Source: Escherichia phage Lidtsur. Taken from it: a DNA stretch of 42,291 bases. Of this stretch, positions 5,965 to 41,570 are shown piece after piece. How positions within the stretch are numbered: the stretch's first letter is position 1; each line of letters starts with the position of its first letter. The stretch is taken from sequence record NC_048177.1. One strand, 5' to 3'. The notes below the pieces were generated by a model that saw nothing but the letters and a program-made list of their open reading frames with translations, had not been told where the DNA came from and searched no databases. A program made the position numbers and the translations under genes.

Positions 5965-6032
5965 ATATTTACTCATGGCATTCTTGATGGATGCCATTAT
6001 GAAAGTATCTGTTAAGCACAACCGGAGGAAAT

Positions 6033-6233
6033 ATGCTCAAAGTATTAGCGCTGTTTGTAGCTGTAGTTATTTTGTGGGGTGTTGCGTGGGTAGGTATCGC
6101 CTATCTTATTGCACCCTATATCGGGACGCAGCTTACTGGTGTGTTAGGCACACTGCTTGGCTTCGTCGTGGGCGCAGTTGGTATGACCAAGTGCATCGAC
6201 TATGGCTGGGGTAAAGGGTGGATTAAATGGTAG
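6033..6233 (+). CDS. small membrane protein, two predicted TMDs (66 aa)
   Basis: CGGAGGAA SD; sequence is almost entirely two hydrophobic helices. Confidence 0.5.
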   Translation: MLKVLALFVAVVILWGVAWVGIAYLIAPYIGTQLTGVLGTLLGFVVGAVGMTKCIDYGWGKGWIKW

Positions 6234-6679
6234 ACAAGACTTATGCGATGGGCGACCGCATCCGACAGGTAGGCTCCAACTGTGGCACACGCCGTGGCTC
6301 TGAGGGTATCGTAATATATGCGCGGCCTGATGCCCCGAAGGGTGAAACGAAATACCTCGTTCACTGGTACATGTCAGAGAACGGCTACCGCAGGACTGAG
6401 CCAGAGATAGGGCGCTACAAATCTGACTGGCTGACGTCCAACACCATACTCATAGGCGAGCCTGAACCTGCACCTGAGCAGGGCCGGGGCAGATTCATGT
6501 GCCTCGTTGAAGGTGGTACGACGCCGCCGCGACTCATCCACACTACCGAAGAGTCAGCTCGCCGTGAAGCTGAGCGTCTATCCAGAGTGCATGGTGTCAC
6601 AGCCCGCGTCTTGCGTGTCGTTGGTAGTGTCAACATGAAGCGCATAGTGCAGTACGAGCCGGAGTGGGACAACGAATGA
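6227..6679 (+). CDS. hypothetical protein (150 aa)
   Basis: Track ORF. Confidence 0.55.
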   Translation: MVDKTYAMGDRIRQVGSNCGTRRGSEGIVIYARPDAPKGETKYLVHWYMSENGYRRTEPEIGRYKSDWLTSNTILIGEPEPAPEQGRGRFMCLVEGGTTPPRLIHTTEESARREAERLSRVHGVTARVLRVVGSVNMKRIVQYEPEWDNE

Positions 6680-23530: not shown

Positions 23531-24523
23531 ATGGCCGACAACTACTATCAGCCGAATCAGTTCCGTCCACACTGGGGTGGCGCGAACTCTGATAACGACA
23601 TTCACCTTGAGGTGTATGACCGTGATGTTCAGACCCAGTTCATCTACAACTCCATCTTCCGTTCCGGCCTGACCAACTTCAAGTCTGTGGCTAACCAGTC
23701 CAACACTTGGCGTGGCGACCGCCTCGGCTCCGTGACCGTCAAAGGTCGTAAGTCTGGTCAGTCTCTGGAGAACCAGCCAGTTCGCTCCGAGAAGCTGATT
23801 GTCACTGTTGATACGGTGTCTTATATCCGTATCCCGATTGACTATCAGGACGACTGGACTGCGCCGGACTTCCGTGCTGAGCTGACCCGTAACATGGGTA
23901 CATCTCAGGCGAAAGCGTTCGACCAAGCGCACGTCATCCAGCTCCAGAAGTCTGCTGACTTCGTACCGCCTGCATCTCTGGCTGGTGCGTTCAACGCAGG
24001 CATCAAGGAGAAAGTGACGCTGACTGGTACTGTAGCTTCTGAGGAAGACGACGCCAGCGCACTGGTTCACGGTCACAAGAAAGTGATTGAGGCATTCATC
24101 CGCCGCGACGCAGACCTTGGCCGTCTGGTTACGCTGATTGACCCGGCGTGGTTCAGCATTCTGCTGGAGCACAAGAAACTGATGAACGTTGAGTTCACTG
24201 GTGGCCGTGGCGTCAACGACTTCGCTATGCGCCGCGTAGCTTACGTCAACGGCGTACGCCTGATTGAGAGCAACGCTTTCCCGCAGGCTGCAATCACTGA
24301 CCACATTCTCGGCCCTGACTTCAACGTCACCGCTGAGGAAGTGAAGCGTAAGATGATTATCTTCGACCCGTCTCTGGCGCTGGTCACTGTCGAAGCCCAA
24401 CCGCTGTTCAACCGCGTGTGGGATGACGAACGTGAGATGACCAACGTACTGGACAGCTTCCACATGTACACCGTGGGTCAGAAGCGTCCTGACGTGGTTG
24501 GTGTAGTCACCACCGAAGCCTAA
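23531..24523 (+). CDS. major capsid protein
   Basis: 330 aa ORF following scaffold gene, T7 gp10-like size and position; followed by a hairpin. Confidence 0.8.
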   Translation: MADNYYQPNQFRPHWGGANSDNDIHLEVYDRDVQTQFIYNSIFRSGLTNFKSVANQSNTWRGDRLGSVTVKGRKSGQSLENQPVRSEKLIVTVDTVSYIRIPIDYQDDWTAPDFRAELTRNMGTSQAKAFDQAHVIQLQKSADFVPPASLAGAFNAGIKEKVTLTGTVASEEDDASALVHGHKKVIEAFIRRDADLGRLVTLIDPAWFSILLEHKKLMNVEFTGGRGVNDFAMRRVAYVNGVRLIESNAFPQAAITDHILGPDFNVTAEEVKRKMIIFDPSLALVTVEAQPLFNRVWDDEREMTNVLDSFHMYTVGQKRPDVVGVVTTEA

Positions 24524-34000: not shown

Positions 34001-34102
34001 AACGATGCGCGTAGAGCGGCTGGTAACATCATTCAAGCACTTCCTCTCATCTCCATTGTGCCGGGTGTCCGTGCACTCAATGAAGCAGTTAAGGGCGAAT
34101 AA
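30998..34102 (+). CDS. internal virion protein C (ejectosome component)
   Basis: 1034 aa ORF overlapping upstream stop (ATGA); T7 gp16-like position. Confidence 0.6.
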   Translation: MITQESLDKFMAPKQGANAPTLVIPAPVQAETLSTPLQEATRQGAIEQFERMQELEATPMSTALSASVKNWDTTQLFDAAINKPTFQVDPNFKPNEALQNVQFPVTEDDRTFLFKSKSMDEFNWRTQQLQEMRDRSELARTAPVMNAVVQFADPLYLATDLLSMGAGTALKLGRIGTAAIGAATTAATMATVGSEARPVSDNEIIFAAALHGAATAAVFKPAKAERSLADMSPEEFAAEMQRRNGIDPNNPPQFDPNNAMSPLAMSLGVGPRGAVVTDEVPAAIRDAAQRGLDLARRGEQTNPKRPWLEWSLYKTFSGHSEDSKALADRLLDDPLNPNATSAAAIQRETQARFGVLLNQYEDTLRVSLANQGWGNLRRFYDPVGYRRAQQEFESAVRMELDKRMIDPNFRGANTDVANAVDRLGEYSRAVGKELERKGMVEPGFVEKNPYYYPRRMNVAKVEEAERLLGKKAFMKQMTTAVQRGLSSDRPTANVIAHAMVERARRKGYGIDNSGHIINKEGRDELLEIINNAKGFDEAAKARASALLRPAGEDAGRPSMLKARINIDMMHQLGPNLQVRDLFDDSITSMMDSYNRRITGRLALHEAGLGTDAERAAAREALAKSIADGTKRREALQQYDNIVNYYMGAPVGEEMPQFMRQLSALTQATGLAASGLWQLVEYGTMMQRFGAMNTFKAMLRTLPEARALLKQMKVSAKDGRQLALDTEEALTAAVAGDIRMRPILQHYDDMFSADKSPWVMRLEHARDATMFINMQKYIHFHQTRTNAALVMQTLRKAAEGDAKAIAAMKTYGANDALLADVRKEVAKSGTKPESWDEGVFNRTRTVMMNAMDDAIVRARVGELPAFAEFSTLGKFLFTFRRFVAATHNKTLVGTWNRDGARGMATLMAYQFPLAMMATAANNVISGKAFKDPTTMTPGKLAGQALNYIGAIGFASEFTGVLTGQQRSFGAPGLLFLDRMYGVAGATTGAAGNLLTGDTDQAVNDARRAAGNIIQALPLISIVPGVRALNEAVKGE

Positions 34103-36483
34103 TGGCGAACAGCTATAACACCTATGTGGCGAACGGGACGCAGACTGCGTTCCTCGTCACCTTTGAACAACGAGTGTTCACGCAGATTCAGGTGTACGTC
34201 AACTCTGAGCTACAGACTGGCGGCTACACCTACAACTCCGTGACCAAGCAAATCGTATTCACATATCCACCGACTGCTGGCGCTATTATCCGCTTGCAGC
34301 GGTACACTGACGAAACCCTGCTCAACAAGTTTGGGCAGGACGCCGCATTCACCGGGCAGAACCTTGATGAGAACTTTGAGCAGATTCTGTTCAAAGCAGA
34401 AGAGACTCAGGAGGCGTGGCAAGCTCCGTTAGACCGGGCGCTGCGCATCCCTAACTCTGAGGTGTCCATCAGTGCGCTGCCGACCGTGGCATTCCGTAAG
34501 AACAAGGCACTGGGCTTTGACGATAATGGTCAGCCCTTCATGATTCCTCTGGTGGATATTCCAGACTCCGCACTGGCTATCGCGCTGGCTATGCCGGACG
34601 GCGGCAAGTGGATTGGTACTCTGGCTGGTGGCACGTTCCTGAACCGTCAGGATACGGTGTGCCTGTCCGAGTTCACCAACAACTCTGCGTACGCTACTGT
34701 GTCTGCGGCGGTGCAGGCTTGCTTCGATTATGCAGCAGCCAACAACAAAGTCGTTGATGCTCGCGGCTGGGTAGGGACTCTCAATGCCAACGTTACCATG
34801 ACCAATATTGAGGTGGTAGGCGGTACGTGGAAAGGCACCTCTGACGTATTCATCGTCAACTCACTGTTCCGCAACTTCAAAATCAACAACCTTCGTCTGC
34901 GTCCATACGGCGGCGACACTCGTATCCGCAACGGTCTATTTGATGGTAAGCCTACGCTGAGCAAGGTAGCGAGTATTATGCTCCAAGCAATCCCTGCCAC
35001 TGGCACCATTGAGGTAACTGACTGTGAGTTCCGCAACGGTCTGTATGGTATCTTGCAGCAGGGTACTGGTTCAGTTATGACTCGTGGGCTGTTCCGCAAC
35101 CTGTCGTTCTATGACATGGGCGGTGACGGTATTGAGCTTAACGTTGTCCAGAACCACTATGACGACGGCTGCTTGATTGAGAACATCGTGCTTGAGAATA
35201 TCGACAGCACTGGTCAGGCTCCGATTAACAACTCCAACTGGGGTATTGGTATCGGCGTGGCTGGTAGCTCTCCGTATGGCCTCGACACGCCAGACAGCTA
35301 TTACGCCAAGAACATCACTATCCGCAACGTCAAAGCGCGGCGCTGCCGTCAGGTTGTGCACTTCGAGCAGGTTCGTGACTCTCTGATTGAGAACATCGAC
35401 GGCGACCCTGACCAGAACGTATCGAACGGCTCTGGCCTTACTATGGCTACTGTGCTGTGCTATGGTGCGCGTCGCGTAACCATCAATGGTGTGCGCGGTG
35501 AGCCTGTAGTCACGTCAGGTACTGACCCGCACAGCATCCGTATTGTGATGCTGGAGTGGGGTACTAACGCAGGTGTTGGTGCTCGCGGGCCATGTCAGCA
35601 CATGACTGTGCGTAACGTGTCCTCGCGCAACGGGCGCTTCTATGCTGGCGTTGGCTGTCAGGACGTTGGGCTGGATAACACAGCTACGTTCGAGAACATC
35701 GACTGCTACAACTTCCGGCTGTTCGGTGTTGCTCGTGAGCTGAATCTGGCAAACATTACCTGCACAGTGTTCGACTGCATTGGCGATGACTCTGCTGGCG
35801 GTACGTCCTCTAACGGTTATCTGGCCGTAGGCCGCACCACACTCAACATGACCAACGTTAATGCGTTGTCTGAGGACTTGGTTGCTAACCAAGGATGGAG
35901 CCGCTGTGCGTACTCGTACGTGTCCAGCATTGCATCCAACGTGTATGCCCGTCCATATCCCCGTCAAGGTATTGACGGTGGTATCGGCGTACCCGTGTGG
36001 CCGAGCAACCGAGTGTACGTGATGCCTGATGCCACTGACGTAAACATCACTAACTGGGACGGTACTCAATTCCCTGCTGGACGCGAGTTCGTAGAGGGCG
36101 ATTTGATTATCCGTACGGACGGTAAGTTCTTCACAGTAACCCGTAGCGGTGCTTATATCCCAGCTATTGCTGAGTATCAGGTTAAGGCTGCTGCTGTTGG
36201 ACAGACTTATCTGGCAAGTAACTACCCAATGGACGGTAACAAAGGCACGATGGTCTGGATTTACAGGTACATGTTGACTCCGGGCACCCACATCAACATT
36301 CCGGGTGCTGGTGCTGGCGGTAGCGTATTGCAGACCACCATCGCTCGCGGGCCGTACCGTACGGATGTGAACAACCCAACCAGTGAGATTCGTGTCGGTA
36401 TCTCTGACCCAATCCAGACGGCGATTCCGGCAGGTACGCAGCTCTCTGCGACTTACCCAATCTCGTTCCGTTCACCAGCATAA
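34102..36483 (+). CDS. tail fibre / tailspike with T7-type N-terminal anchor and beta-helix C-terminal region
   Basis: N-terminal ~150 aa (MANSYNTYVANGTQTAFLVTFEQRVF...) resembles the T7 gp17 anchor; remainder shows periodic ENI/NIT/RNV motifs typical of a right-handed beta-helix. Confidence 0.8.
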   Translation: MANSYNTYVANGTQTAFLVTFEQRVFTQIQVYVNSELQTGGYTYNSVTKQIVFTYPPTAGAIIRLQRYTDETLLNKFGQDAAFTGQNLDENFEQILFKAEETQEAWQAPLDRALRIPNSEVSISALPTVAFRKNKALGFDDNGQPFMIPLVDIPDSALAIALAMPDGGKWIGTLAGGTFLNRQDTVCLSEFTNNSAYATVSAAVQACFDYAAANNKVVDARGWVGTLNANVTMTNIEVVGGTWKGTSDVFIVNSLFRNFKINNLRLRPYGGDTRIRNGLFDGKPTLSKVASIMLQAIPATGTIEVTDCEFRNGLYGILQQGTGSVMTRGLFRNLSFYDMGGDGIELNVVQNHYDDGCLIENIVLENIDSTGQAPINNSNWGIGIGVAGSSPYGLDTPDSYYAKNITIRNVKARRCRQVVHFEQVRDSLIENIDGDPDQNVSNGSGLTMATVLCYGARRVTINGVRGEPVVTSGTDPHSIRIVMLEWGTNAGVGARGPCQHMTVRNVSSRNGRFYAGVGCQDVGLDNTATFENIDCYNFRLFGVARELNLANITCTVFDCIGDDSAGGTSSNGYLAVGRTTLNMTNVNALSEDLVANQGWSRCAYSYVSSIASNVYARPYPRQGIDGGIGVPVWPSNRVYVMPDATDVNITNWDGTQFPAGREFVEGDLIIRTDGKFFTVTRSGAYIPAIAEYQVKAAAVGQTYLASNYPMDGNKGTMVWIYRYMLTPGTHINIPGAGAGGSVLQTTIARGPYRTDVNNPTSEIRVGISDPIQTAIPAGTQLSATYPISFRSPA

Positions 36484-36492
36484 GGAGTAATC

Positions 36493-36798
36493 ATGGCATC
36501 CGCTAACAAGCAGCTCGACGCGCTGCATCGGATGCTGGTTGAGTACCTTACTGACCGCTTGGTTGAGGCCCGGAAGAAAGATGAGGATGGCAACATCCTC
36601 GCTCCGATGGCCGCAGCCGAGCTGTCGGTACTTCGCCAGTTCCTCAAAGACAATGGCATCGCTGCTGATGCTGACCACGCCGACGACCTGCTGGCTCTCC
36701 AAGAGCAGCTCAAGCAGGAGAAATCGGATACTGCACGAAAGTCCATTATGGACGCTGCGATCACTTCAATCGCAGAAGATAGCGGGATGATGCACTAA
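36493..36798 (+). CDS. terminase small subunit (DNA maturase A)
   Basis: 101 aa helical protein directly upstream of the large terminase; AAGGAG SD. Confidence 0.55.
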   Translation: MASANKQLDALHRMLVEYLTDRLVEARKKDEDGNILAPMAAAELSVLRQFLKDNGIAADADHADDLLALQEQLKQEKSDTARKSIMDAAITSIAEDSGMMH

Positions 36799-38558
36799 TG
36801 GATTTACAACGCCGCATGGTGATGGCAGGAATCGTTCGCGCTCACTACGAGAACAACTTCCCGCTGTTCCTGCATGACTACTTCGCATGGCTGGGCTTTG
36901 ACCTCACTGAAATGCAGCTCGACATTGGCCGCTACATGGCCGACCGGACGCTCAAGAACAAGTGCGTCATGGCTCAGCGCGGTGAGGCTAAGTCCACCAT
37001 CGGTATTGCTCGCGCCCTGTATGAGTTCGTCCAGATGCCAAACGCCACTGTGCTGCTGGTATCTGGTTCGGACGATTACGCAGGTACGCTCTCGCACGCT
37101 ATCGTGTCTGCCATTATGCAGTGGGAGCGCCTTGAGTGGCTGCGCCCTGAGACTCGCGCTGGCGCACGTACGTCCTATACGGACGGCTTCGACGTGCACC
37201 ACGCATTCCGTATCCCTGACAAACAGCCCTCTGTCAAAGCGGTCGGTATCTTCGGCCAGTTGCAGGGGAACCACGTATCATTGCTGATTGCGGATGACGT
37301 GGAGACTACCAGTAACGGTAGCTCTCCTGCCAACCGCGCCCGTATCGCTACCCTGACCAAAGAGTTCGCCGCTATCGCCAACGACGGTGCAGAGATTCTA
37401 TACCTCGGCACGCCTCAGACTCAGGATTCCATCTATAACTCGCTGCCACAGCGTGGCTTTGACGTACGCATCTGGCCCGGTCGCTTCCCTACGCCGGAAG
37501 AAGAAGAGCGGTACGGAGGCTGTCTGGCCCCGTGGATTAAGCAGAAGATGGATGGCCACCCTGAGCTGCGCACTGGATACGGCATTCTTGGTAATCGCGG
37601 TGCTCAGACTGACCCGCAGCGCTACTCAGAAGAGAAGCAGTTGCAGAACGAACGTGACTATCAGCAGGCAGGCTTCCAGCTCCAGTTCATGCTGGACACG
37701 TCGCTGTCTGACGCGCTCAAACAGACACTGCAACTTCGTGACTTAATCCTGTTCCACGGCTCTCCGCAGTCGGCACCGGAGTATTTGCACTGGTCTAATC
37801 ATCCGCGTCATCTGGCAGAGCTGCCTATGGACTTCCCGCTCGCCCGCGCCCAGCTTTATCTGGCCGCTGATTTCTCGGAGACTTATGTACCATTCACGAA
37901 TACCAAGGCGTTTCTTGACCCTGCTGGTGGTGGGACGGACGAATCAGTTATCTTTGCCACAGCTTCTATCGGCCCGTTTATCCATGTCCTCGGTATGCAC
38001 GTCTACCACGGAGGGCAGACGGAAGAGAACATCAAGACGGCGGTAGAATGGCTGCATAAGATGGGCGTTCTGCACATCACCATTGAAGACAACATGGGCC
38101 ACGGTGCAGTAACCAACATGTATCGTGGTGAAATTAAGCGGCAGGGATTGGCCATCGGCTGCGAGGGTACTTACTCCAGCGGCCAGAAAGAAGTGCGTGT
38201 GATTAGCCGACTCAGCCCAATCCTCCAGCGCCACCGCGTGGTGATGCACTGGTCTGTGCTTGAGGAAGACTTGCGCCTATGCCGCAACATGCACAATGGC
38301 GGGCGGGAATACAGCTTGTTCTGGCAGATGCAGAACATCACGCAGGACAAGAACGCAATACCGCACGATGACCGAATTGAAACCCTATCCGCTGCCGTGT
38401 ACCTCCATGCTGAGGTGCTCCAGCAAGACGAACATGAAGAGGCCCAGCGCCGTGAGGCTAAGGCTGCCAAAGAGTTCTTGGCTAACCCAATGGGTTACGA
38501 TGACTCTAAATGGCGCAGCCACAAACCCGTGCGCGGAACTCGTCGGAGAATTAGATAA
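36798..38558 (+). CDS. terminase large subunit (DNA maturase B)
   Basis: 586 aa, same length as T7 gp19; Walker A-like QRGEAKST and Walker B-like LLIADDVE. Confidence 0.85.
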   Translation: MDLQRRMVMAGIVRAHYENNFPLFLHDYFAWLGFDLTEMQLDIGRYMADRTLKNKCVMAQRGEAKSTIGIARALYEFVQMPNATVLLVSGSDDYAGTLSHAIVSAIMQWERLEWLRPETRAGARTSYTDGFDVHHAFRIPDKQPSVKAVGIFGQLQGNHVSLLIADDVETTSNGSSPANRARIATLTKEFAAIANDGAEILYLGTPQTQDSIYNSLPQRGFDVRIWPGRFPTPEEEERYGGCLAPWIKQKMDGHPELRTGYGILGNRGAQTDPQRYSEEKQLQNERDYQQAGFQLQFMLDTSLSDALKQTLQLRDLILFHGSPQSAPEYLHWSNHPRHLAELPMDFPLARAQLYLAADFSETYVPFTNTKAFLDPAGGGTDESVIFATASIGPFIHVLGMHVYHGGQTEENIKTAVEWLHKMGVLHITIEDNMGHGAVTNMYRGEIKRQGLAIGCEGTYSSGQKEVRVISRLSPILQRHRVVMHWSVLEEDLRLCRNMHNGGREYSLFWQMQNITQDKNAIPHDDRIETLSAAVYLHAEVLQQDEHEEAQRREAKAAKEFLANPMGYDDSKWRSHKPVRGTRRRIR

Positions 38559-39238
38559 TGTCCCTCGCTTCCATCACAAACGCCCAACGCTACAACGTGG
38601 GTAATGCAGTGAACATCGCGGCGCATAATACTCAGCGCTTCATCAACAACACCAAGGCACCAACAGCGGCTCAGGAAGCTCTGATTGCTGACAGTATGCA
38701 GGACGCAGCAGATGCCCTTGCCGTTGCCGGGTACTTCGCACTGCCCGCTGGCACTGTCACCGTAAGCGACGGCGCAGCCACTGCCGTGCTCAACTCTGCT
38801 GGTGCAGACAGTCACCCAGCCACTGCCGTTGTTACTGGCGGTGCACTGACTGGTGTGAAGATTACGGCAGACACCACGGCTATCGTTGACCTGAACGATA
38901 CGGTCGAGATTCGTCGGGCTGACGGCTCCGTGACTGGTATCACTACTGGCTCTACCCGTGTAGCCGCTGGAGTGCTGGCCAACGTCCGGCTGCCTATCAC
39001 TGCTGATGCGGTGGTCAACAACGGTACTGTGTCTGTGCGCAACTCTGCCGCAGCAGACCCGCACAACGCCACCGTCGTAGTCAACAACCAAGGTGTCCTG
39101 CAAGGTGTGAACCTCGCGGCCACTGCTGCTATCGTCGATAACGGCGATGCACTCACTGTGCCTGTAACTGGCACGTACACAACCACTGCCACCATCTCCG
39201 TTGCTAACGGTGTGGTTACTGGCATCGTACTGTCCTAA
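38558..39238 (+). CDS. Ala/Thr/Val/Gly-rich repeat protein of unknown function (226 aa)
   Basis: GGAGA SD; internally repetitive (ATAVLNSAGAD / ATAVVTGGALTGV / VTGITTGS / ANGVVTGIVLS); N-terminus shares a motif with the next ORF. Confidence 0.5.
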   Translation: MSLASITNAQRYNVGNAVNIAAHNTQRFINNTKAPTAAQEALIADSMQDAADALAVAGYFALPAGTVTVSDGAATAVLNSAGADSHPATAVVTGGALTGVKITADTTAIVDLNDTVEIRRADGSVTGITTGSTRVAAGVLANVRLPITADAVVNNGTVSVRNSAAADPHNATVVVNNQGVLQGVNLAATAAIVDNGDALTVPVTGTYTTTATISVANGVVTGIVLS

Positions 39239-39250
39239 TGGAGAATACTC

Positions 39251-39442
39251 ATGGCTCTTTCTGCATCCACGCCAGCTCAGCGCTACGAGCTGATTAACGC
39301 CTGCAACAACCTGACCAAAGTGTGCCACAAGTTTGAAGAAGACGGCTATCTGGCCACTGGCAACACTGCGCTCATGACTAAGCTGCAAGCAGCTATCACC
39401 CGCGTGCAGACTGCACTGACGGCTATCGCTAACGCCGCATAA
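39251..39442 (+). CDS. small protein paralogous to the N-terminus of the preceding ORF (63 aa)
   Basis: MALSASTPAQRYELINACNNLTK vs MSLASITNAQRYNVGNAVNIAAH; GGAGA SD. Confidence 0.45.
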   Translation: MALSASTPAQRYELINACNNLTKVCHKFEEDGYLATGNTALMTKLQAAITRVQTALTAIANAA

Positions 39443-39453
39443 GAGGTACTCGC

Positions 39454-39942
39454 ATGAAACTGTCTCGGCTAATGGCCGGGGCAGTCCTCTCACTGTCACT
39501 GACATTGACGGGCTGCTCCGCGACAAGCGCACTCTCTGCCGCTGCCTCTGTTATCTCGCCTGACAAACCAGAGCTGACGGCTCAGGTCGGTGCTGAGAAT
39601 ACCAAGCAGGGTATCGGTGTCACTGCAAAGCAGTCCGACGATACCAAAGTCGGCGACGTATCTGGTAACGCGAAAGTGGATACCGCTAAACAAGGTAGCG
39701 ACTCGACAACTGTGAAGGACGTCACAGGAGGCTCTGTAAACGCTTCTAAGCAGGGTCAGCAGATGAGTAATGGAAACGTGCAGGCTCGCACTGTAAACGT
39801 CTCTCAGAGCGACCCACGCAGTCTCCTGTGGGCTTTTGCAATGGGCCTTGCAACTATTCTTGGTCTGGTAATGTGGTTCGTACCATCTCCGTGGAAAAGG
39901 AAGGTGAAAGATGACGGAGCAAAAGAAGGAGCCAACTCCTAA
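39454..39942 (+). CDS. candidate unimolecular spanin (lipoprotein with C-terminal TMD)
   Basis: Lipoprotein signal with lipobox LTGC; periplasmic K/Q/S/D repeat region; C-terminal TMD LLWAFAMGLATILGLVMWFV followed by basic KRKVK tail; adjacent to endolysin. Confidence 0.5.
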   Translation: MKLSRLMAGAVLSLSLTLTGCSATSALSAAASVISPDKPELTAQVGAENTKQGIGVTAKQSDDTKVGDVSGNAKVDTAKQGSDSTTVKDVTGGSVNASKQGQQMSNGNVQARTVNVSQSDPRSLLWAFAMGLATILGLVMWFVPSPWKRKVKDDGAKEGANS

Positions 39943-40294
39943 CAACCATTCGCGTATGGGCGCGGTGGAGGCTCGTATGCAATCCGTAGAAACTCGCCTC
40001 GACAAACACGAGATTCAAATTGCCAACCTCGAAAAAGGTGACGCTGCCATGATTGCTAAGCTGGCGGAGAACGACTCCCGCTGGGTTGAGATTCAGCAGC
40101 AATTGCGCGTTGTCGAGCAAATTCAGGATATCCAAAAGACAATGAGCCATATCGGTAAACTGTTCACGTACACGGCTCATGCCGTCAAGTGGTGCCTGCT
40201 AACCGCATCCCTTGTTAGCGGTATCTACCTCGCTATCAAAGCTGGCGACTTAGCATCGTTGCTGGCATTCATTCAAGCTCTAATGGGGATGTAA
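39911..40294 (+). CDS. membrane-anchored coiled-coil protein, candidate holin or lysis regulator
   Basis: AGGAAGG SD; N-terminal heptad-like region then C-terminal hydrophobic segments (WCLLTASLVSGIYLAI, LASLLAFIQALMGM); immediately upstream of endolysin. Confidence 0.4.
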   Translation: MTEQKKEPTPNNHSRMGAVEARMQSVETRLDKHEIQIANLEKGDAAMIAKLAENDSRWVEIQQQLRVVEQIQDIQKTMSHIGKLFTYTAHAVKWCLLTASLVSGIYLAIKAGDLASLLAFIQALMGM

Positions 40295-40830
40295 TGACTA
40301 ACTTTGAAATCTGTATGAAGTTCACCGGGCTGGCTGAGGGTGGCTATACCAAGCTGCCCGGTGACACTGGAGGGGAAACCAATCATGGAATTAGTGACGC
40401 TCGTGATGGAAAGCTGGATGGTCGAGCTTGCGGTGTCCCTACTGGGCTTGGCGGGACTATTTGTGTTCCTATCAAGCAGCTCACCAAAGAGCAAGCCGAA
40501 GCTATCTATCGCCGGGACTACTTCACCCCAATCCGTGGTGACGAGTTACACCCTGCGATTGCATGTGCCGTGTTCGACTTCGGTGTCAACTCCGGCGTCG
40601 CCCGCGCAGCTAAAGCTCTACAGCGGGTATGCGGTGTTGCACAGGACGGTGTTATCGGTGCTGCAACCGTGGCAGCGGCCAAGCGTCTGGAACCTCACTC
40701 CGCAGCAGCATCCATCTGTGACATTCGTATTGAGTTCCTAAAGGCTTCTACAGCCCCGACAATCGTTCGGTATAGGGATGCCTTGGTTGCTCGTGCAAAA
40801 CGCTGTAGCGCTTACTGTGCGACGTTATAG
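40294..40830 (+). CDS. endolysin, GH108-type N-terminal domain
   Basis: FTGLAEGGYTKLPGDTGGETNHGIS matches the EGGY...GG.T..GI signature of GH108 muramidases; last gene before the terminal non-coding region; no N-terminal TMD. Confidence 0.75.
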   Translation: MTNFEICMKFTGLAEGGYTKLPGDTGGETNHGISDARDGKLDGRACGVPTGLGGTICVPIKQLTKEQAEAIYRRDYFTPIRGDELHPAIACAVFDFGVNSGVARAAKALQRVCGVAQDGVIGAATVAAAKRLEPHSAAASICDIRIEFLKASTAPTIVRYRDALVARAKRCSAYCATL

Positions 40831-40899
40831 GGGCATTGAAAGCTGGGACATTGAACAGGCGTAATACCCCGGCTTGAAAATTGACTATTTGTGCGTGGG

Positions 40900-41410
40900 C
40901 CTCCCTCGACTCGAAGGAGCGCCTGCGCCCCCGTACGCCTGTGCGCGTGCGCGTGCATGACGTGTGCGCATTATGCGCGTGTGCCTGCGCGTGCGGTATT
41001 GCTCGCGTGCGTGCGGTAACAGCTCGCGCGTGCCCGTTTCCATTGTCGCGGTGTGGCGTGCTGTGCTCTGCGCGGTGCTGTGCCACTGCTGGCTGTGCCA
41101 CTGCTACCACTGGACGCGCCTGCGCTGGCCTGCGCTGGTATCGGCTCCGGTCGTGGCGGGTATCTATCTCTTTTGCCTGCGTGCTGCGCCTGCGTCCTGT
41201 CACTGCCTGCTAGCGCCTGCTATCTGCCTGCGCTCGCCTGCCTCCAGCTACTCCAGCTAATCGCGTCACTGCTACTAGCCGTTGCTAGCCGTGATACTTG
41301 CTATCCGTTCGCGTTCTCTCGCTATCCACTGCGTGTCCAGCTCGCTCCGCTCCGCGCTCCGCTACCGCACTGCGTGCTGCGTCGCTTACGCTGCGTATCG
41401 CTTACAGCTT
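40900..41410 (+). repeat. A-depleted GC-rich short-repeat tract, probable terminal-repeat / packaging region
   Basis: About 500 bp almost free of A on the + strand, built from reiterated TGCGCG, CCTGCGC, GCTGCG, GCTCCGC units; non-coding; sits between last and first gene. Confidence 0.5.
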
Positions 41411-41570
41411 ATACTGTAACAGTTACTTTCATTTACTCACTGATTTATAAAGAGTTTTAGACGGTTATTAGCTACTGATTGAGCTATTCAAGTATCTATC
41501 CAATCAAATATTTAATCCTATTGAATACATACACTTACCTACATTTTGAGCTATTCAGTGAAAATAATTC

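Follow-up and report, generated by a model that had tools for sequence, protein, structure and literature searches.

The gene pair downstream of the large terminase

Two adjacent genes of Escherichia phage Lidtsur (NC_048177.1; the window analysed here is the whole stretch of 42,291 nucleotides) lie on the + strand between the gene for the large terminase subunit (TerL) and the lysis genes: a large one at 38558–39238, encoding 226 residues, and a small one at 39251–39442, encoding 63 residues. On the evidence set out below they very probably encode a capsid decoration pair, and we refer to them as α-paw and α-claw, or simply paw and claw, the names used for the proteins of phage PhiM1. Both open reading frames (ORFs) start with ATG and coincide with those of an initial annotation, made from the letters alone. 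Each is preceded by a Shine-Dalgarno GGAGA (38545–38549 for paw, 39240–39244 for claw), and the paw ATG overlaps the TerL stop codon in the sequence TAATG. The window looks like a complete podophage genome, colinear with that of Kosakonia phage Kc261 (Autographiviridae, Bonnellvirus), and the late genes, like every other gene identified in the window, are on the + strand. A 345-residue ORF on the minus strand (38495–39532), spanning the whole paw and claw region, was dismissed as almost certainly a spurious antisense artefact, because the two genes that it overlaps on the opposite strand are conserved in several genera of phages and the genes of the window are all on the + strand.

Architecture of the paw protein

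The description of the large protein as Ala/Thr/Val/Gly-rich and internally repeated stands: A (19.5%), V (13.7%), T (13.3%), G (8.4%) and N (8.4%) together make up 63% of the 226 residues, and in an internal alignment residues 62–144 are 40% identical to residues 145–226 (expectation value, E = 2e-7). The AlphaFold2 (AF2) model, with a predicted local distance difference test score (pLDDT) of 86.5, has two helices, 8–26 and 37–56, followed by three-stranded β units. The two helices form the α-claw motif, a helix-turn-helix covering residues 1–60 (38558–38737) and also recognized by hhalign, which would be the dimerisation and capsid-binding domain by analogy with the solved proteins discussed below.

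The remainder of the protein is a β “forearm”, in which a hidden Markov model (HMM) of the repeat unit finds four tandem copies of ~41 residues, at 67–107, 108–149, 150–191 and 191–226. Unit 1 (38756–38878; unit HMM E = 1e-15), with strands at 74–78, 85–93 and 96–102, carries the loop NSAGADSHPATA; unit 2 (38879–39004; E = 4e-10), with strands at 115–118, 129–136 and 139–144, is divergent (EIRRADGS…); and unit 3 (39005–39130; E = 5e-16) carries the loop NSAAADPHNATV. The last unit is the C-terminal cap (residues ~191–226, 39131–39235; E = 8e-7), with the sequence ALTVPVTGTYTTTATISVANGVVTGIVLS. It is the most conserved part of the family and matches phrog_10405, a “virion structural protein” (E = 3.5e-8); all other PHROGs matches of paw and claw are to families of unknown function. 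The DNA of units 1 and 3 contains copies 249 nucleotides apart that are 72–74% identical, and Tandem Repeats Finder found no DNA-level tandem array in the repeat region. With only these old copies and no tandem array, the forearm units are therefore not recent duplications.

Paralogy of the two proteins

The small protein is modeled by AF2 as a hairpin of two helices, 8–31 and 39–62 (pLDDT 86). A pairwise BLASTP between the two Lidtsur proteins is not significant (E = 0.24); the signature S-x-T-x-A-Q-R-Y is visible directly in both. Since a word-indexed search of a large protein collection returned only three relatives of the small protein, the syntenic genes were taken from phage records instead, being gathered from fifteen related phages for profile–profile comparison with hhalign. 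In this comparison the small-protein family is matched, over 57 columns, to residues 1–60 of the large-protein family, with a probability of 96% (E = 3.7e-9). The resemblance, which the initial annotation had limited to the first ~30 residues, thus extends over the whole ~60-residue domain, and the profiles confirm the 63-residue protein as a claw motif alone, a paralogue of the entire paw N-terminal domain. We accordingly class the gene at 39251–39442 (+ strand) as α-claw-type, on the basis of its ORF and of the AF2, Foldseek and hhalign results.

The proposal that the repeats are Ig-like β-sandwich units is not supported: units of ~41 residues are too short for Ig domains, which have roughly 80–100, and Pfam gives no Ig-type match, nor anything meaningful for paw or claw. 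The same facts bear on a wider alternative, that the large protein is an Ig-like decoration of the Hoc/pb10 type at hexamer centres and the small protein an unrelated accessory. T4 Hoc, T5 pb10, N4 gp17 and φ29 gp8.5 are non-essential capsid add-ons with a flexible outward domain, for which weak adhesion has been proposed or shown. Their hexamer-centre sites, folds and oligomeric states are, however, unrelated to those of the Lidtsur pair, and no sequence or fold match between the pair and decorations of this type was found. Furthermore, paw begins with a helical hairpin whose homologue is a motif binding two-fold axes as a dimer, and the profiles show homology of the small protein to this very domain. 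This alternative is very improbable.

Similarity to the decoration proteins of PhiM1

A close described counterpart of the pair is found in Pectobacterium phage PhiM1. With phmmer, the Lidtsur paw matches chain J of PDB entry 8VB0 (PhiM1 gp43, “alpha-paw decoration protein”) over residues 1–148 and 163–226 (E = 2.5e-20), and the profile of the paw family matches the same chain with E = 1.9e-47; in hhalign, the N-terminus of the Lidtsur paw aligns to that of the PhiM1 paw with a probability of 97% (E = 5.6e-11). The partner in PhiM1 is gp44 (8VB0 chain H, “alpha-claw”, 62 residues), whose gene adjoins that of gp43 between TerL and the spanin. Like Lidtsur, PhiM1 therefore has a paralogous two-gene pair between TerL and the lysis genes, consisting of a claw-only protein of ~62 residues and a helix-turn-helix protein with a β-rich forearm ending in the same cap. 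The two systems differ in gene order, claw preceding paw in PhiM1, as in other Corkvirinae, and following it in Lidtsur, and in the number of forearm units (three in PhiM1, four in Lidtsur).

By cryo-electron microscopy (cryo-EM), claw and paw of PhiM1 are homodimeric helix-turn-helix bundles; most sites are taken by claw, paw is found at the flanks of the hexamer–penton interface, and the ratio is 5:2 per asymmetric unit (Eruera et al., PNAS Nexus 2024; PMC11440229). The C-terminal forearm of the PhiM1 paw is flexible, was not resolved and is without known function, and according to the authors it has no obvious binding surface (PMC11440229).

The Lidtsur claw leads to the same structures. 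Among 350,542 PDB chains, Foldseek places 8vb0_N (a 57-residue PhiM1 decoration chain) and 8eld_H (gp48 of phage HRP29) at ranks 1 and 2 for the claw model, with template modeling (TM) scores of 0.64–0.72. In hhalign the Lidtsur-type claw family aligns to the N-terminus of the PhiM1 paw (85%, E = 6.4e-6) and to HRP29 gp48 (78%, E = 1.7e-5, over 24 columns only; hmmsearch to 8eld_H gives E = 0.037).

The major capsid protein (MCP; 23531–24523, + strand), which would be the binding substrate of both decoration proteins, is of the corresponding type. Its phmmer matches to solved MCPs are HRP29 8eld_A (E = 4.9e-92), 23sf_I (4.7e-89), PhiM1 8vb0_A (6.3e-82) and 9s9b_A (1.5e-70), and all four PDB entries list decoration or minor structural chains. 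The Lidtsur protein is an HK97-fold MCP of the lineage to which these four belong, that of KP34, HRP29 and PhiM1. With the PhiM1 MCP it has only 44.6% identity; at the PhiM1 contact residues Asp21 is kept and Asp86 is replaced by Glu.

A number of points weigh against the assignment. The Foldseek E-values for the 63-residue claw hairpin are not significant (0.23 and 0.98), and two of the PhiM1 contacts are not kept in Lidtsur: paw Arg15 is replaced by Gly and MCP Val22 by Asn. Claw and the gp44 family of PhiM1 are not directly similar (hhalign 5.7%, E = 0.0067, 17 columns), so that the link between them is transitive only, by way of HRP29 gp48 and the N-terminal domains of the paws. Set against these points are the homology, domain architecture, synteny and capsid protein type established in the analysis, and we consider it very probable that 38558–39238 and 39251–39442 encode the capsid decoration pair of Lidtsur. 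The initial annotation had already suggested a decoration protein with an outward, possibly adhesive extension, in agreement with the match to gp43, and a short protein that is its truncated paralogue and partner, as gp44 is in 8VB0.

If so, the helix-turn-helix of claw would pair into an antiparallel homodimer, a four-helix bundle, with the “clip loop” between the helices inserted into a pocket of the MCP. Claw homodimers would occupy most of the inter-capsomer interfaces, their main job being to staple the DNA-filled shell, while paw homodimers would bind through the same claw motif at a subset of sites beside the pentons. From there the forearm, with its four three-stranded β units of ~41 residues and the cap as the last, would project off the head as a flexible fibre, giving ~60 dimeric paw fibres per head. 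We infer dimerisation, the binding sites and a claw-to-paw stoichiometry of roughly 5:2 by homology. Both proteins would be made late, from one transcription unit with the terminase and lysis genes.

The neighbouring terminase and lysis genes

Upstream of the pair lie the genes of the small terminase subunit (TerS, 36493–36798) and, directly before paw, of TerL (36798–38558). Downstream of claw, the lysis cassette (39454–40830) consists of a spanin-like gene (39454–39942; phrog_1804 “Rz-like spanin”, E = 3.4e-37; lipobox), a gene whose product combines a coiled coil with a hydrophobic helix at the C-terminus (39911–40294; phrog_35530) and is likely the holin, and a GH108 endolysin gene (40294–40830). 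The spanin-like protein has a lipobox, LTGC, near its N-terminus and a hydrophobic helix near its C-terminus, which is the architecture of a unimolecular spanin and not of an Rz/Rz1 pair; its gene overlaps that of the likely holin by 32 nucleotides. Neither terminator-like nor promoter-like sites were seen on the + strand of the interval from TerL to the lysis genes. Past the endolysin, at 40881–41460, several long ORFs overlap in various frames on both strands with no clear gene among them, and this stretch may correspond to a non-coding region at the right end or to a terminal repeat.

With the pair immediately upstream of the spanin, holin-like and endolysin genes, it could be thought part of the adjoining cassette, as a spanin, antiholin or membrane protein. 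GenBank labels point the same way: the paw homologue of PP16 is recorded as “putative Rz-like lysis protein” and those of Peat1 and PPWS2 as “type VII integral membrane protein”. In Stenotrophomonas phage Sonora, too, the lysis cassette closely follows the forearm-bearing gene. Read directly, however, the paw and claw sequences have no signal peptide, lipobox or hydrophobic transmembrane stretch, and in PHROGs and Pfam neither has a match to a lysis family, unlike the genes downstream; homology to a known lysis or packaging protein, which would have spoken against the initial annotation, was likewise not found in these databases. A separate and complete lysis set follows the pair, and the PhiM1 homologues have been modeled on the capsid surface by cryo-EM, which conflicts with the Peat1, PPWS2 and PP16 labels. 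We therefore hold a lysis function to be extremely improbable.

Gene layout in related phages

The pair was at first regarded as an insertion, since TerL is directly followed by the lysis cassette in the canonical phiKMV layout. The position of the two genes does differ from the layout so described, but the Lidtsur order is standard in HRP29, LIMEzero and the Bonnellvirus genomes examined. HRP29 (a Shigella phage, Buco) has the identical series TerL, gp47 (124 residues), gp48 (60 residues), spanin, holin and endolysin, and among the solved MCPs that of HRP29 is nearest to the Lidtsur MCP (E = 4.9e-92). Its gp48 (PDB 8ELD chain H) resembles the Lidtsur claw in the N-terminal helix and in the predicted fold; gp47, in contrast to the Lidtsur paw, has no β forearm or cap, looks all-helical from its sequence and resembles the claw motif only weakly. 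In their annotation the two HRP29 proteins are likened to KP34 gp52/gp53, and a search with a fragment of gp48 found homologues in 232 records of Klebsiella phages. The layout TerL, large gene, small gene, lysis genes is common to LIMEzero (gp51/gp52) and every Bonnellvirus genome examined; in the Corkvirinae the order of the two genes is reversed.

An equivalent pair is known from the phiKMV-like Pseudomonas phage Ar-KM. There, gp55 forms four-helix-bundle dimers that staple capsomers, and the “spike” gp54 has a near-identical helical core (1–59), joined by a linker to a small barrel that points outward at the C-terminus and varies in sequence between strains (bioRxiv 10.64898/2026.05.18.726046). 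Like the paw of ROV85, Ar-KM gp54 has a cap-like barrel only and no tandem units, as opposed to the four units of the Lidtsur paw; judging from the gene numbering, gp54 and gp55 probably do not lie between TerL and the lysis cassette. The paw profile aligns the cap to the barrel of 9s9b_m, a chain of 104 residues, in a weak match (E = 0.022). The matching length and a GGEGG linker suggest that this chain is Ar-KM gp54, and 9S9B probably represents the Ar-KM capsid family; a literature search on the PDB codes 9S9B and 23SF found nothing relevant. Because HRP29, KP34-like phages and LIMEzero share the layout and phiKMV-like Ar-KM has an equivalent pair, the Lidtsur pair is not a novel insertion: it is a general feature of this capsid lineage and not a new acquisition.

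Modularity and spread of the forearm

The number of forearm units, counted with the unit HMM and with the cap taken as the last unit, varies considerably. ROV85 and Pseudomonas phage 73 gp012 have one, the cap only; LIMEzero also has one, a non-cap unit, its cap region not being recognized; PP16, BF25/12, CX5 and PPWS2 have two; PhiM1 has three; Lidtsur, Kc261 and J8-65 have four; and two metagenomic relatives have five. The claw gene is kept in every genome examined and the paw gene is not, so that paw is dispensable in nature. PPWS1 has a claw gene only and no paw gene. In Escherichia phage HHU8 (L014, 854–1189) paw is interrupted by an in-frame stop behind residue 54 and lacks repeat units, and in ROV85 (L010, 3501–3809) it is reduced to the claw motif plus cap, 102 residues in all; the claw gene is present in both.

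Forearm and cap are also found outside the paw proteins, attached to other N-terminal domains, which in siphophages are unrelated and encoded next to capsid genes. Pseudomonas phage 73 has gp012, which like its relatives is a “virion structural protein” encoded just past the major head protein; these proteins are 83% identical to the last ~40 residues of the Lidtsur paw, a value also found for the last ~40 residues of Pseudomonas siphophage virion proteins of 132 residues. By eye, phage 73 gp011 (5531–5935 in L005) and gp012 (6001–6372) look like a pair with a common N-terminal anchor domain, the former ending in a low-complexity Ala/Pro/Gln tail and the latter in the conserved cap. A relationship between them found no support in BLASTP (E = 0.43), and the idea of a second anchor-sharing pair was dropped. 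In Stenotrophomonas phages A1432 and Sonora the forearm module comes directly after the MCP gene. Sonora (L004, 6713–10116) has, within its head module, the forearm gene, two small genes and then spanins, holin and endolysin, an arrangement that echoes the decoration-then-lysis adjacency of Lidtsur. Versions fused to DUF1737 are located in the head module of an SU10-like phage, and one metagenomic version adjoins a Gp13-like capsid gene. The family as a whole is small, with 176 clusters among 1.84 billion representatives at E ≤ 1e-3, and its matches in BFVD are all uncharacterised phage proteins.

A more far-reaching interpretation, which we offer tentatively and think rather unlikely to be right, is that the forearm is not peculiar to PhiM1 but a mobile capsid-display cassette of variable copy number, with NSAGADSHNAT loops and a near-invariant cap, that has been grafted onto unrelated head-anchoring domains and constitutes a hot spot of recombination or selection. 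The recipients may have been the claw motif in Autographiviridae, DUF1737 in an SU10-like podophage and a third domain in siphophages of Septimatrevirus and Mesyanzhinovviridae. In the same scheme, part of the paw gene would have been duplicated on more than one occasion to give claw-only partners: the transitive link to gp44, together with the reversed gene order, makes an independent origin possible, and claw-only genes could have formed upstream of paw in Corkvirinae and downstream of it in Bonnellvirus, HRP29 and LIMEzero.

Divergence from Kc261

Compared with Kc261, the MCP of Lidtsur is 95.8% identical and TerL 90.6%, whereas paw (56%), claw (49%) and the tailspike (58%) have the lowest identities among the 23 genes compared. 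The tailspike gene is at 34102–36483, and its Kc261 counterpart is named “tailspike colanidase”. The Lidtsur claw is slightly nearer to that of LIMEzero (56%) than to that of Kc261 (49%), though the LIMEzero MCP is only 78% identical. For the capsid-surface genes this pattern points to cassette exchange or accelerated divergence, two processes that are not separable with 63 residues.

Of the 14 amino-acid differences between the Lidtsur and Kc261 MCPs, 4 fall within residues 69–80. By analogy with Ar-KM gp37, whose E-loop has the range 52–89, these residues may lie in the E-loop, which in PhiM1 is part of the “clip pocket” for claw. The MCP may have changed here together with the divergent claw, or the clustering may be due to chance.

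Possible roles of the forearm

For the forearm we consider weak, reversible adhesion to surface polymers the most likely role, speculative as this is. The way it diverges and varies in copy number would suit a surface element that adheres or interacts in some other manner. The same paw type is nevertheless present in phages of Kosakonia, Cronobacter and E. coli, and this, with the 83% cap identity in Pseudomonas siphophages, argues against host-specific recognition. The occurrence of the cap and NSAGADSHNAT loops in phages of unrelated hosts, and of one paw type in several, fits a structural role better.

Such a role is at the heart of an alternative that accepts the decoration pair and denies the forearm an adhesin role. 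The forearm would instead act passively, as a spacer or as a shield that keeps virions from aggregating or masks the capsid, or would be an element for folding or dimer registration, and its variation would be neutral. Besides the conservation of cap and loops across hosts, this alternative draws on a repeat number that goes from the cap only to four units plus cap, on the dispensability of paw (absent from PPWS1, interrupted in HHU8, cap only in ROV85) and on the view of the PhiM1 authors that the forearm has no obvious binding surface. Neutral variation is less easily reconciled with the comparison to Kc261, where paw, claw and tailspike (56%, 49% and 58%) contrast with the MCP (96%) in a pattern more usual for surface-exposed, interaction-driven proteins. 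We give this alternative appreciable weight, short of preferring it to adhesion.

Implications

A pair of this kind has already been seen by cryo-EM in related phages and is unsurprising to a specialist. The gain is mainly one of annotation: in every related record examined (Bonnellvirus, Waewaevirus, Corkvirinae) these genes are labeled “hypothetical” or mislabeled as membrane or lysis genes, and by homology they can now be named as capsid decoration proteins. The ~60-residue head-binding core, which tolerates varied C-terminal cargo, also offers itself as a scaffold with which T7-like capsids could be engineered or used for phage display. Finally, a near-invariant capsid protein held by highly divergent staples presents a small, testable evolutionary puzzle. 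If the cassette is indeed a hot spot, there would be a selective agent acting on the capsid surface, for example adhesion targets or host sensing of capsid-associated proteins.

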